A DNA stretch of 17,667 nt, taken from UHGV virus genome UHGV-0114647; one strand, written 5' to 3'. Shown one piece after another: positions 4,390 through 17,180 of this stretch (within the stretch, counting starts at the first letter, position 1; each line of letters opens with the position of its first letter). A program made the translations under genes and the position numbers. Origin of the DNA: a virus. The notes below the pieces were generated by a model, which searched no databases, was not told the origin of the DNA, and saw nothing but the letters and a program-made list of their open reading frames with translations.

Positions 4390-4647
4390 ATGGGAATTTT
4401 TTCAAACATGAAAGCAGGTTTCTTAGCAGCTCTGGCAAAAGCAGCAGCTATCGTTTCAATGACTGGTAAGCAGGTTGGAGTAGACGCTTCAGCAGTTGCA
4501 CAGGTTCTTGCAAGCCAGATTGAACAGCAACCTTACATCCATGTTGGACGTGGTAAAGGTGGTAAGAAGCAAGCTCATCGCCAAACTGGTGCAGCAGCAA
4601 TTAAACGTGCAGCTAAAAAAGCTCGCAACCGCAAACGTAGCAAGTAA
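4390..4647 (+). CDS. hypothetical Ala-rich protein with strongly basic C-terminal tail (85 aa)
   Basis: ORF translation; C-terminus GKGGKKQAHRQTGAAAIKRAAKKARNRKRSK. Confidence 0.5.
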   Translation: MGIFSNMKAGFLAALAKAAAIVSMTGKQVGVDASAVAQVLASQIEQQPYIHVGRGKGGKKQAHRQTGAAAIKRAAKKARNRKRSK

Positions 4648-4658
4648 GGATTATTAAA

Positions 4659-4970
4659 ATGGAAAAGGTTTATAACACTCGTAAAATTCAGATTTCTATC
4701 CTGTGCCAGTTTATGGCTGATAAACACAACTCCCACTATTGTGGTACAGGTTTCCTTACTTTAGGTGGTGGCTACATTAGCTTTAAAGAAGCTGTGAAGA
4801 TGTACAACGAGCACCCTGAAGGTGACAAAGAGTTGAAACAACTGAAGCTTACTTATGACAAGAAGCGTAAGAAAATTGTATGCTTGAACAACCTTATCAA
4901 GCCAACTGAAAACGTTTATGATGCAATTGGTGAGGAAGGTTTCTTAAAAGTCTTGAAAATAGCTCAGTAA
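4659..4970 (+). CDS. hypothetical protein (103 aa)
   Basis: ORF with AAGGA upstream of the ATG. No recognisable motif. Confidence 0.5.
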   Translation: MEKVYNTRKIQISILCQFMADKHNSHYCGTGFLTLGGGYISFKEAVKMYNEHPEGDKELKQLKLTYDKKRKKIVCLNNLIKPTENVYDAIGEEGFLKVLKIAQ

Positions 4971-5023: not shown

Positions 5024-5539
5024 ATGTACCATTCAAATCTGAAACGTGCTGCTGCAATGTCTGTTCTTCGTCTTGATTTTGATGAGCGTCAAGAGTTCAT
5101 CGAGTCACATCAGTATGACTCTTCAAATTCTAATCACATGGTGCTTTGGAATCGTGGTAAGTTCCGTGATAGTGCCTTGTTCCAGTACTACCCTCATTAC
5201 ACTATTGACAACCTCTATGAATACTGCGTTGTCAAGAACACTATTGCAACCCTTAATAAGCTTTGTAGATATTCTGGAAAGAAAGCTTTCACATTAGGCC
5301 ACCATAAGCCTGTGACAAAAGGTGGAGAGCACCATTGCTCGAACTGGTTTATTCAGACTCAAGAAGATAACCAGAAGCAGGGAGAGAAGCTTCCAGAAGC
5401 CCCTAAGATGACTTGGGAGGAACAGAAAGCATATCTTAAAAATAATATGCCACCAATGCTTGACAGGGAATATGCAGTTCTGGCAATATCACTCTTGTTG
5501 AAGCTTGAGACAGTTTATGAGGCAACTTATCATGGCTAG
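5024..5539 (+). CDS. hypothetical protein with possible HNH-like motif (171 aa)
   Basis: GGAGAA RBS. Segment GHHKPVTKGGEHHCSNWFIQTQEDNQKQ loosely resembles the HH-x-P-x3-GG...N core of HNH nucleases. Weak. Confidence 0.45.
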   Translation: MYHSNLKRAAAMSVLRLDFDERQEFIESHQYDSSNSNHMVLWNRGKFRDSALFQYYPHYTIDNLYEYCVVKNTIATLNKLCRYSGKKAFTLGHHKPVTKGGEHHCSNWFIQTQEDNQKQGEKLPEAPKMTWEEQKAYLKNNMPPMLDREYAVLAISLLLKLETVYEATYHG

Positions 5540-5810
5540 AGAACAATGGGATATCAAAGAGCTAATTAGCGAAGCTGGAAATGGTAGTGAGATGTATATG
5601 ATACGTGGTCACGTCCCAGATGCACTTGCTATTGAGATGATAGACCACTACTCCAACGGATTCTATAAAGAGTTTGGAGAGCCAAATATTGAACGTACTT
5701 GGACAAAACCAGTACCAGACGGAACAGGAAACTGTTCAGTTATCTACCATATTGTAGACCCAAAGAAATGTAAATCAGCTATGGCTGTAACATTTGTAAC
5801 TTTTGATTGA
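5532..5810 (+). CDS. hypothetical protein (92 aa)
   Basis: ATG at 5532 overlapping the upstream gene by 8 nt. No recognisable motif. Confidence 0.4.
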   Translation: MAREQWDIKELISEAGNGSEMYMIRGHVPDALAIEMIDHYSNGFYKEFGEPNIERTWTKPVPDGTGNCSVIYHIVDPKKCKSAMAVTFVTFD

Positions 5811-6702: not shown

Positions 6703-6708
6703 AAACTT

Positions 6709-6726
6709 TAGGGGCTGAAAGCCCCA
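6709..6726 (+). other. intergenic hairpin GGGGCT-GAA-AGCCCC without a clear U-tract
   Basis: Perfect 6 bp GC-rich stem 20 nt upstream of the NAMPT-like start. Near-identical hairpin recurs at 11570-11587. Confidence 0.4.
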
Positions 6727-6745
6727 CTTTGAGAGAGATAAAAAG

Positions 6746-8572
6746 ATGACTAAATCAATCTATGCAGTACCAGCAGGTCTTAATGCAGATGCTTATAAAG
6801 CGGGTCATATCTATCAGTATCCAGATGCTACACAGTATCTTATGTTGAACTTAACACCTCGTGGAGATAAATGGTTTAACTCTCCGTTAGAGATTGATGG
6901 TGTTGTAGCTTTTGGTATTCAGCGTTTTGTAAAAGACTATCTGGTAGACCACTGGAATGCAACGTTCTTTGAACGTGATAAGAAAGAAGCCATTGACGAA
7001 ATCTTGGAAATCATGAATGGTGTCCTTGGTGCAGATACTATTGGTCGTCAACATTGGGAAGAACTTCATGACTTGGGTTACCTACCTGTTGAAGTCTACT
7101 CTGTAGAGGAAGGTACAATTGTCCCTATGCGTGTCCCGATGATTGTCTTCAAAAATACTGTAGAGGGATTCCATTGGGTAGCTGGTTACCTTGAAGATGC
7201 TTTCTCTGCTGAAATCTGGAAAGCTTGTACGATTGCAACTATTGCACTGCATTACAAACGTATTTGTAAGCAATGGGCTGATTTAACCTGTGACAACGAC
7301 TCCCATTTACCTTGGCAGTGTCATGACTTTGCAATGCGTGGCATGTCTGGCTTCACAGATGATGCGTTTAACGCAGTAGGACACCTGACAAGCTTTAAAG
7401 GTACTGACAGCTTCCCTGCTGTCTACACTGCTAAACGTTCTTATGGTCAGTTTATGGAAGTAAGTGATATCGGCAACTCTGTACCAGCTACTGAACACTC
7501 TGTGATGTGCGCAAACATTTCATGGAATATGAAAGACTTGTCAGAGGAAGATATTCATTCACAGTACATCATGCGGTCTGATAGCTTGCTGGATGCAAAA
7601 CGTTGGCGTGGTGAGGTTAAAACCTTTGAGCATTTACTGGTAGACGTATATCCAACTGGTATTGCAAGTGTTGTTTCAGATACTTACAACTTCTGGCGTA
7701 CTGTTACAGAGATTCTGCCAGAGCTACGTAATGTAATTCTGAATCGTGATGGTAAGTTGGTAATTCGTCCAGACTCTGGAGACCCTGTTCACATTGTTAC
7801 AGGTTACAAAGCCGTTGAATGGGAAACTGCTAAGTCAATGTTCTACAAGCACATGAAAGGTCTTGCACCAGATAATACCCATCTGCATGACACAATCTTG
7901 AATTGTGAAATGTCTGATATTGGTTTTGGGTTCTCTGCTTGGTTAATCTCTGAAGGTTATGAGATGGTTGTTGAAAATGAAGATTTTGATTATATTGATA
8001 CAATCAACCTGATTACCGCTCAGAAAACTGGACAGTTTACTGTGAAGCGTATGTTAACAGCAGAAATTGATGGAGCTATCCACACGCTGTATAACATCTT
8101 TGGTGGTACTGTTAACTCCAAAGGGTACAAAGTACTGGATGAGCACATTGGACTAATCTACGGTGATTCTATCACTCTGGAAAGGGCTAATGAGATTCTG
8201 TCACGTCTTGCTGATAAAGGTTTTGCAAGTTCTAACGTAGTGTTTGGTGTAGGCTCATACACCTATCAGTACCTGACTCGTGACACCTTTGCATTTGCTG
8301 TTAAAGCAACTCTTGCACAGATGGATGGTCAAGAAATTATGCTGGCTAAAGACCCTAAAACTGACAGTGGTCTTAAGAAGTCTGCTTTTGGTGGAGTCGT
8401 CCCTATGTGGGATGGTGACAAGCTAGTAGCTGTAGATGGTTTTGGCTTTGCAGAGTTTGAAGGTGCAATTGACAATTGTCATAGTGCTTTGAAACTGGTA
8501 TTTAGTAACTCGCAACCTTATGGTTACGTTAACCTGCGTGATGTTCGAAATACTATTGACAAGCAACTTTAA
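6746..8572 (+). CDS. nadV: nicotinamide phosphoribosyltransferase family protein (NAMPT/NadV-like), 608 aa
   Basis: N-terminal DAYKAGHIYQYP (compare NAMPT DSYKxxHxxQYP); HDFAMRGMSG...HLTSFKGTDS (compare DFGYRG...HLVNFKGTD); VVSDTYNF; VIRPDSGDP; NSKGYKVL; GDSIT; FGVGSY; LTRD. About 100 aa longer than typical NAMPT. Confidence 0.8.
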   Translation: MTKSIYAVPAGLNADAYKAGHIYQYPDATQYLMLNLTPRGDKWFNSPLEIDGVVAFGIQRFVKDYLVDHWNATFFERDKKEAIDEILEIMNGVLGADTIGRQHWEELHDLGYLPVEVYSVEEGTIVPMRVPMIVFKNTVEGFHWVAGYLEDAFSAEIWKACTIATIALHYKRICKQWADLTCDNDSHLPWQCHDFAMRGMSGFTDDAFNAVGHLTSFKGTDSFPAVYTAKRSYGQFMEVSDIGNSVPATEHSVMCANISWNMKDLSEEDIHSQYIMRSDSLLDAKRWRGEVKTFEHLLVDVYPTGIASVVSDTYNFWRTVTEILPELRNVILNRDGKLVIRPDSGDPVHIVTGYKAVEWETAKSMFYKHMKGLAPDNTHLHDTILNCEMSDIGFGFSAWLISEGYEMVVENEDFDYIDTINLITAQKTGQFTVKRMLTAEIDGAIHTLYNIFGGTVNSKGYKVLDEHIGLIYGDSITLERANEILSRLADKGFASSNVVFGVGSYTYQYLTRDTFAFAVKATLAQMDGQEIMLAKDPKTDSGLKKSAFGGVVPMWDGDKLVAVDGFGFAEFEGAIDNCHSALKLVFSNSQPYGYVNLRDVRNTIDKQL

Positions 8573-16191: not shown

Positions 16192-16384
16192 TTTCTGCAC
16201 TAAGTGTTCTGTTGAGATGTTTGGAAAAGACACAGGGGACTTAAAAGGTCTCTTTACAAAAGCAGAGTTTGAAGCTGGTTCAGCAATGCCAGTAATCTGT
16301 GAAGGTTGTGGTGCTTTATGGGTAGACCATGAAGGTAACCGAGTTAAACCATCTGAAGATAACGAACGTTGGGAGCATTACTAA
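16184..16384 (+). CDS. small zinc-ribbon protein (66 aa)
   Basis: AGAGGT RBS. Two Cys pairs, CTKC and CEGC. Overlaps both flanking genes. Confidence 0.45.
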   Translation: MADFCTKCSVEMFGKDTGDLKGLFTKAEFEAGSAMPVICEGCGALWVDHEGNRVKPSEDNERWEHY

Positions 16385-16385
16385 T

Positions 16386-17180
16386 ATGGGTATCGTAAAA
16401 ATTATTAAAGGTGATATCTTTAAAGACTTTGATGGTAAGAAGTTTGATATCATTGGTCACGGTTGTAACTGTATGAACTTGATGCCAGCAGGTATCGCAG
16501 CAACAATTGCCAAACGTTACCCAAAAGCTTATGAAACTGACGCTGAAGTTTATGCTGCAGTAGGTGGTGAAAATCATAACCCTAAGCATCTAATGCTTGG
16601 TAACATCTCTGTAGCACGTTTTAAGCAGGGTCGAATTGCTAACCTTTACACTCAGGTTATCACTGGCAAAGATGCACGATACAACGCCTTAGAAGCAGCT
16701 TTACAGCGTCTTAACAACTACTGTAAAGTTAATCAACTTAAGAAAGTTGGGCTTCCGATGATTGGTGCAGGGATTGGTGGTCTTGATAGCATGGCTGTGC
16801 TGTCCATTATCAACCAGACTATGAAGGATGTTGACGTTTATATGTATGTCTATGAAGATAAGATGTACAGTCAGTTGACTAGTCCTGTTACTGGTTGGGA
16901 GAACTTCAGTGAGCCTCAATACTTTGATGGTGTTGCTGTGGTAGGCAAGGATAAAGTTACCCTCAAGGTGAAGCGTAATGGCAAGGTACACACCAGTTAC
17001 CCTCCGGTTGAGAAGTACAATCGGAGTAACGCTCAAGTTACCCACCCGTTACAAGGCCACCACCACAGAGCGGTAACGTTTGGTGATGATGCAAGTGTAT
17101 ATATCAATGCGACTACAGAAGAGTTTGCAGAAGATTATATCACACATGAAAACGTAAACTATGTTGAAGCACGTAACTAA
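16386..17180 (+). CDS. macro-domain protein (ADP-ribose binding/processing) with C-terminal extension
   Basis: N-terminus MGIVKIIKGDIFKDFDGKKFDIIGHGCNCMNLMPAGIAATIAKRYP matches the macro-domain opening (GDI-[TF]...D-x-I-V-N-A-A-N...G-G-V). Later GLPMIGAGIGGLD resembles the phosphate-binding glycine-rich loop. Confidence 0.6.
   Translation: MGIVKIIKGDIFKDFDGKKFDIIGHGCNCMNLMPAGIAATIAKRYPKAYETDAEVYAAVGGENHNPKHLMLGNISVARFKQGRIANLYTQVITGKDARYNALEAALQRLNNYCKVNQLKKVGLPMIGAGIGGLDSMAVLSIINQTMKDVDVYMYVYEDKMYSQLTSPVTGWENFSEPQYFDGVAVVGKDKVTLKVKRNGKVHTSYPPVEKYNRSNAQVTHPLQGHHHRAVTFGDDASVYINATTEEFAEDYITHENVNYVEARN

Follow-up and report, generated by a model that had tools for sequence, protein, structure and literature searches.

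An additional domain inserted in the NAMPT-like Namat of an Ounavirinae phage

The adps-namat locus

The window analysed here (the whole 17.7-kb stretch of virus genome UHGV-0114647) derives from an Ounavirinae phage. Its adps-namat segment is 99.5% identical to that of Shigella phage ESh19, and 93-99% identical to those of other Mooglevirus genomes. The + strand carries nrdD (386-2617), the gene for its activase, several ORFs of unknown function and a Prs-like gene, followed by an ORF for a NAMPT-like protein of 608 aa, rIIA, rIIB and a gene for a Macro-domain protein. The Prs-like product matches Pfam Pribosyltran and Pribosyl_synth, as well as phrog_619 (5e-99), and its gene, adps, ends 43 nt upstream of the NAMPT-like ORF, namat. 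Coordinates of these two genes, and of the segments of namat discussed below, are collected in Table 1.

The start of adps was placed at a TTG (5803) in the program-made list of ORFs, while the ATG used in Table 1 agrees with the 882-nt annotation found in all relatives. Adps and namat are separated only by a spacer (6703-6745), unlike in FelixO1, where an HNH homing-endonuclease gene (2492-2983 of the retrieved locus, L002) lies between them.

Adps and Namat make up NARP1, a widespread counter-defence of phages that is reported in about 4% of those sequenced, and which in general counters several NAD+-depleting defence systems. Adps pyrophosphorylates ADP-ribose in the first step, and in the second Namat converts ADPR-PP and nicotinamide to NAD+ and PPi. 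Deletion of the adps-namat operon makes phage Bas63 sensitive to SIR2-HerA (bioRxiv 10.1101/2024.02.11.579819). A preference for ADPR-PP over PRPP has been shown biochemically with a purified phage Namat (including an active-site mutant in SpβL1 R306 numbering) and, in vivo and at the level of the operon, for Bas63.

Table 1. Positions of adps, namat and the segments of namat considered in the text.
Feature	Residues	Position	Strand	Basis
adps, Prs-like ADP-ribose pyrophosphate synthetase, NARP1 partner	293 aa	5821..6702	+	Pfam, phrog_619
namat, nicotinamide ADP-ribose transferase of NARP1, NAMPT-like fold	608 aa	6746..8572	+	Pfam, PDB match, Foldseek
Selectivity-clamp loop (SCL), TPRGDKWFNSP	37-47	6854..6886	+	alignment, comparison with Bas63
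Insertion A (insA), helical extension after the catalytic-His strand	258-289	7517..7612	+	phmmer, MAFFT, AF2
RPDSGDP, end of catalytic strand, N-terminal anchor of the insertion B loop	341-347	7766..7786	+	alignment mapping
Insertion B (insB), self-contained α/β domain, ~85-87 residues	356-442	7811..8071	+	phmmer, AF2
Selectivity-clamp helix (SCH), GSYTYQYLTRD	503-513	8252..8284	+	Namat signature GSXΦXΦXΦTRD

Identity of the 608-aa protein

The 608-aa protein matches Pfam NAPRTase (1.2e-30) and NAMPT_N, and its residues 2-608 span the phrog_448 profile (500 positions). When compared with all PDB chains by phmmer, its best matches are 9w5w and 9w5x (E 3e-124), the crystal structures of the Namat of phage SpβL1 (PMC12774641). 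A Foldseek comparison of its model with 9w5x (E 3e-53, TM 0.94, target-normalised) likewise shows the NAMPT-like type II PRTase fold. SpβL1 Namat is thus the best match in both sequence and structure; it has the fold, the catalytic residues, the GSXΦXΦXΦTRD motif and the reaction in common with the window protein. Among phages with an experimentally examined NARP1 operon, Bas63 (JohannRWettstein) encodes a Namat (gene 80; bioRxiv 10.1101/2024.02.11.579819) with the same operon partner and the same SCL and SCH motifs, and the two proteins are 75% identical over their full length.

The residues that contact NAD+ in SpβL1 Namat are listed in PMC12774641, and they can be followed through the alignment. 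D13, Y15, F189, R192 and D215 correspond to D15, Y17, F195, R198 and D221 of the window protein; R306, D308 and G360-D361 to R341, D343 (both within RPDSGDP) and G473-D474; and G390-S391, R399 and D400 to G503-S504, R512 and D513. Further contact positions map to K42/W43, A248, Y505, Y509 and T511. All are invariant in an alignment of 39 sequences, except K42/W43, Y505 and Y509. The selectivity of Namat for ADPR-PP has been assigned to a clamp formed by SCL and SCH, defined on the SpβL1 enzyme (PMC12774641). The SCH signature GSXΦ1XΦ2XΦ3TRD, with aromatic residues at X, is matched in full by GSYTYQYLTRD. In the SCL, the position of SpβL1 R40 is taken by K42, with W43 next to it. The Bas63 sequence is arranged likewise, and W43 is likely to be the adenine-stacking residue, as described for Bas63.

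Canonical NAMPT/NadV enzymes (human NAMPT, 2gvg; Haemophilus ducreyi NadV, 9ke8) are type II phosphoribosyltransferase dimers that have RPDSG, the catalytic His and the nicotinamide pocket in common with the window protein, but they use PRPP, have neither the aromatic clamp nor an Adps partner, and carry no insertion at either of the sites described below. In human NAMPT the segment equivalent to the SCH reads GSGGGLLQKLTRD, without the adenine-stacking aromatics. Having GSYTYQYLTRD and an adjacent adps gene, the window protein falls outside this canonical class, while every sequence-level feature of a Namat is present. The ORF probably encodes an ordinary, functional Namat that is the orthologue of the Bas63 enzyme, an assignment we make jointly with the reading of its insertion given below. 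Both the gene and its function were already known, and the window is a close relative of deposited phages.

Two insertions in the Namat core

A preliminary description of this DNA had proposed that the NAMPT-like protein, at 608 aa longer than typical for NAMPT, carries an insertion of about 100 residues within 7796-8110, and a smaller extra stretch between the DFxxRG and RPDSG landmarks. Both are real. All 32 solved NAMPT/Namat sequences that were matched have 477-503 aa. RPDSGDP and NSKGYKVL (aa 457-464) are separated by 109 residues, compared to 31 for the same interval in the phmmer alignment to SpβL1 Namat, an enzyme of 491 aa without either insertion, in which about 19 residues follow RPDSGDP before the next helix. 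The same interval in human NAMPT has about 19 residues. The phmmer alignment to 9w5w/9w5x covers three separate blocks of the query (5-257, 290-355 and 443-599), leaving aa 258-289 (insA) and 356-442 (insB) without counterpart in solved NAMPT/Namat chains. The larger insertion proper therefore lies inside the range first proposed, as given in Table 1, and the landmark spacing on which that proposal relied was right, the inserted residues being absent from the canonical NAMPT/Namat core.

Net gains in length were obtained from the MAFFT alignment of the 39 sequences, by comparison with homologues of 495/496 aa. The interval from V348 to T447 spans 100 residues in the window protein vs 27 in these homologues (net +73), and that from S252 to K292 spans 41 vs 13 (net +28). 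InsA directly follows the strand with TEHSV, which includes the catalytic H251, and is 14 residues longer than in Bas63. InsB is flanked by the RPDSG strand on one side and by the next helix of the barrel on the other. No catalytic or ADPR-PP clamp residue is replaced or interrupted by either insertion. As insB is present in frame in 255 phage records, it is neither a chance feature nor an artefact of assembly.

Predicted structure and position

The full-length AlphaFold2 model, built from the 39-sequence alignment, has a mean pLDDT of 92.8, and means for blocks of ten residues are 91-96 across 351-440. InsB is modelled as an α/β domain (β356-358, α359-373, α378-386, α393-402, β407-410, β416-421, α422-428, β434-437), and the insA region as helices (251-262, 272-276 and 281-301). 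When insB was modelled on its own (aa 353-443, 27-sequence alignment), the pLDDT was 94.3, the pTM 0.83 and the secondary structure unchanged, which supports an autonomously folding domain. The structure prediction proposed in the preliminary description thus returns a discrete domain, with confidence both in the full model and alone.

In the model, insB comes after strand β335-341, which ends in R341 and D343, and before helix α438-452 and strand β468-475, which ends in G473-D474. The ends of both strands contact NAD+ in the SpβL1 structure (PMC12774641). Since these C-terminal strand ends bind NAD+, insB is predicted to occupy a βα loop on the catalytic face of the barrel; and as insA follows the catalytic-His strand and insB the RPDSG strand, both would emerge on this face, at its rim. 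Judged from this topology, insB may adjoin the pocket or the dimer partner. An AF3 model has been published for the Bas63 Namat together with NAD+; the only contacts to the adenine reported for it come from SCL and SCH (PMC12774641), an observation that neither supports nor excludes a role of insB as a lid.

Relatives and distribution of insB

InsB gave no match in Pfam at E up to 10, and none in PADLOC. Its profile reached a best E of 0.07 against PDB sequences, and Foldseek a best E of 0.11 against BFVD, neither of them significant. Searching 1.84 billion representatives with a profile HMM of insB recovered only Namats, besides one artefact, a tandem-repeat protein of 1880 aa (P0121) whose score arises from 15 repeated partial matches and which was rejected as a relative. 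The fold of insB is accordingly without detectable relatives in Pfam, PDB, BFVD and the representatives searched by profile. Neither of the two structure papers, on Namat (PMC12774641) and on Adps, comments on the insertion, nor does the preprint on NARP1.

The 255 phage records were found by tblastn with insB alone, and by organism name nearly all are enterobacterial phages of the Felix O1 type; four carry other names (Campylobacter, Staphylococcus, Yersinia). Among the 40 of these matches that were listed, the genes are annotated as NadV, NAMPT or nicotinate PRTase, or are unannotated. The insert profile also finds the FelixO1 orthologue (hmmsearch, E 1.5e-29), whose insert differs from that of Bas63 at only 3 of 90 residues. 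Bas63 Namat accordingly has an insertion of the same domain family at the same site, but its allele is only ~43-46% identical to that of the window. Relative to FelixO1, identity is ~46% in insB vs 74.5% over the whole protein, and across genera insB is kept at 26-46% identity. Conservation within the domain is concentrated in two segments, β1-α1 and GYE-β2-ED-β3, which hold the conserved positions K363, G404, Y405, E406, E412, T419 and L422, while the α2-α3 region varies in sequence and length.

Selection was estimated by region (Nei-Gojobori) between the window and four relatives. The core has dN/dS values of 0.06-0.12, insB 0.24-0.26, and insA 0.38-0.61 (three relatives; there are no synonymous differences to ESh22). 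Both inserts are thus under purifying selection, relaxed relative to the core. In sliding comparisons of identity, they appear as sharply divergent patches of the operon, and they diverge separately from each other: insA of the window is 99-100% identical to that of ESh22 while insB has only 62-68% nt identity, and in comparison with Michonne the values are 65% for insA and 91-92% for insB. Seven Ounavirinae Namats display six combinations of insA and insB, drawn from three types of each, and these include Moogle-type cores with a Felix-type insB. By sequence comparison, insA and insB are recombination cassettes that reassort almost combinatorially.

Other inserts at the same site

Site B, the point at which insB is inserted, appears from sequence to be an insertion hot spot in Namats that adjoin adps across phage groups. 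At the lower end, the loop has 18 aa in a Klebsiella chromosomal homologue and ~19 aa in Staphylococcus phage A5W and SpβL1. Inserts of 45 aa (P0086), 60 aa (Kuttervirus KFSST3), 66-67 aa (P0063 and Pseudomonas phage Pyxpy02), 93-94 aa (Bacillus phage Kirov and Serratia phage ChuuTotoro) and 110 aa (Listeria phage P100) occur in others. In Kirov, ChuuTotoro, P100, KFSST3 and Pyxpy02 the insertion point is the same as that of insB, directly after RPDSGxPxxIxxG, and in each of these phages namat is found no more than ~1.5 kb downstream of an adps gene (annotated as such, or of Prs size), next to it in most cases. None of these other inserts was detected by the Felix-type profile (E above 0.5). 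The Kirov and ChuuTotoro inserts, from a Bacillus and a Serratia phage, are homologous to each other (31% identity, E 8e-17), forming a family whose sequence bears no relation to that of the Felix type.

One speculative extension, which we consider improbable, is that the loop after the RPDSG strand serves phage Namats as a dedicated slot for accessory domains. Lineages would have independently installed small domains without detectable relatives (the Felix type, the Kirov/ChuuTotoro type and others), and would now exchange them by recombination. Such domains might control access to the active site that rebuilds NAD+, regulate it, or link it to Adps.

The insert-less Klebsiella homologue (496 aa, 44-45% identical; contig L011, 3217-6491) adjoins a Prs-like gene and a divergently transcribed regulator of the NUDIX/NrtR type. 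This looks like a bacterial NARP1-like locus, or an NrtR-regulated prs-nadV locus.

Possible roles of insB

The preliminary description had suggested that an inserted domain could alter substrate specificity, in line with a non-canonical substrate. The non-canonical donor is borne out as far as sequence can tell, the protein being a putative Namat paired with Adps, but the insertion is not its cause. Without any insert, the Namat of SpβL1 has full activity and is selective for ADPR-PP (PMC12774641). With the SCL/SCH clamp defined on this insert-less enzyme, and its motifs intact in the window protein, insB was rejected as the source of ADPR-PP specificity. As no catalytic or clamp residue is disturbed, chemistry and donor specificity should be the same as in insert-less Namats.

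The reading that we prefer, with a probability of roughly 0.55, is that of an ordinary Namat to which a lineage-specific, non-catalytic domain has been added. InsB would be an accessory domain that folds by itself and has been grafted into the βα loop behind the RPDSG strand; insA would be a smaller, helical addition to the loop that follows the catalytic-His strand. InsB would most likely serve as a cap or buttress, at the edge of the dimer interface or of the entrance to the active site, where it could tune stability, access or quaternary contacts. Such a domain would be exchangeable: it appears to evolve quickly, to be swapped between phages as a recombination cassette, and to be kept by selection.

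A nearly neutral decoration would account equally well for the fast evolution of insB (2-4 times that of the core), for the occurrence of unrelated inserts at this site and for the full activity of enzymes that have none. Across Namats the loop holds anywhere from 18 to 110 residues, and its inserts belong to two or more families that are unrelated to each other. On this reading the surface loop would be permissive, and insB would have essentially no specific function beyond leaving the fold undisturbed. We regard this as unlikely, although it is the strongest of the alternatives. A dN/dS of ~0.25 indicates clear purifying selection on insB, even at saturated dS, and the domain is compact, confidently modelled and has conserved polar residues. 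It has also been retained across genera despite its low identity, while useless sequence is usually shed by phage genomes.

Somewhat less probable again is a docking module for the hexameric Adps, by which the labile ADPR-PP would be channelled from Adps to Namat. A contact of the insertion with the Prs-like partner had also been suggested in the preliminary description. The two genes are adjacent and functionally coupled, and insB is acidic in every member of the family (net charge -2 to -10). One further profile, phrog_12872 (547 positions), is matched by both proteins, by Adps at 30-237 and by Namat at 253-533. This suggests that natural Adps-Namat fusions exist in some phages, and such fusions would suggest in turn that proximity is advantageous. 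The reported lack of a stable complex between SpβL1 Adps and Namat also keeps the idea alive. However, Adps has 280-304 aa whether its Namat carries a Felix-type insert, a Kirov-type insert, another or none, and no lineage-specific segment that would answer to the insert is seen in it. Between the window and ESh22, which differ in their insB allele, adps shows no matching localised drop in identity, and insB alleles reassort freely between phages. The lack of a reciprocal insertion in Adps and of matching divergence in adps argues weakly against docking.

InsB might also be the surface of an arms race, a hypervariable domain that shields Namat from a host factor, or is targeted by one (an inhibitor or sensor of NARP1). 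Within the operon, sharp hypervariability is confined to the two insertions, and their reassortment extends across the Mooglevirus/Felixounavirus boundary. Against this, positive selection is not seen (dN/dS is well below 1), no host factor that targets Namat was found in the literature searched, and mosaicism is common in Ounavirinae-type phages anyway, which makes this a distinctly improbable explanation.

That insB is what remains of a mobile element, be it an intein, part of a homing endonuclease or a segment moved by transposition, can practically be dismissed. InsB has a slightly lower GC content (0.35-0.36 vs ~0.42), and an HNH endonuclease gene adjoins namat in FelixO1, but its 87 aa fall short of the size of an intein (at least ~130 aa with Hint-fold blocks), and it starts with AVEWET and ends with AEID-G, with neither an initial Cys/Ser/Thr nor a final His-Asn plus nucleophile. 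It has no Pfam Hint/intein match even at E 10, its flanking repeats are only chance matches of 11-21 nt, and AF2 models it as well packed and integral to the mature protein. The lack of intein hallmarks had been remarked on from the sequence at the outset.

InsB is a correct but modest finding, and the Namat that carries it is an orthologue of the insert-bearing Bas63 enzyme. The only solved Namat structure that was found (9w5w/9w5x) is of an insert-less enzyme. The enzymes of the well-used Felix O1/Bas63 group, and many others, carry an uncharacterised domain that is predicted to lie by the active site. Whether this is a passive decoration, a lid or a dock for Adps would affect how far the structural model from SpβL1 generalises. 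The role of insB bears on annotation as well, because many Namats are still labelled NadV or NAMPT. If it is passive, insB is a correctly identified but ordinary lineage-specific insertion.

Genes neighbouring the operon

Directly upstream of adps are two + strand ORFs of unknown function (5024-5539 and 5505-5810; phrog_3500 and phrog_4726), which may be co-transcribed with NARP1. ORFs of similar size occupy the same place in FelixO1, ESh22 and the distant Erwinia phage Coenus. The Macro-domain protein (283 aa; 16329-17180, + strand) matches Pfam Macro (9e-07) and phrog_335 ('phosphatase', 1e-106), and its gene lies ~7.8 kb downstream of namat, outside the operon. According to a preprint of 2026, ADPR-1P phosphatases with a Macro domain (Adpp) are associated with NARP1 and enable it to overcome the aRES defence. 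In Pseudomonas phage Pyxpy02 a macro-domain gene (4406-4891 of the retrieved locus, L008) is found two genes downstream of namat.
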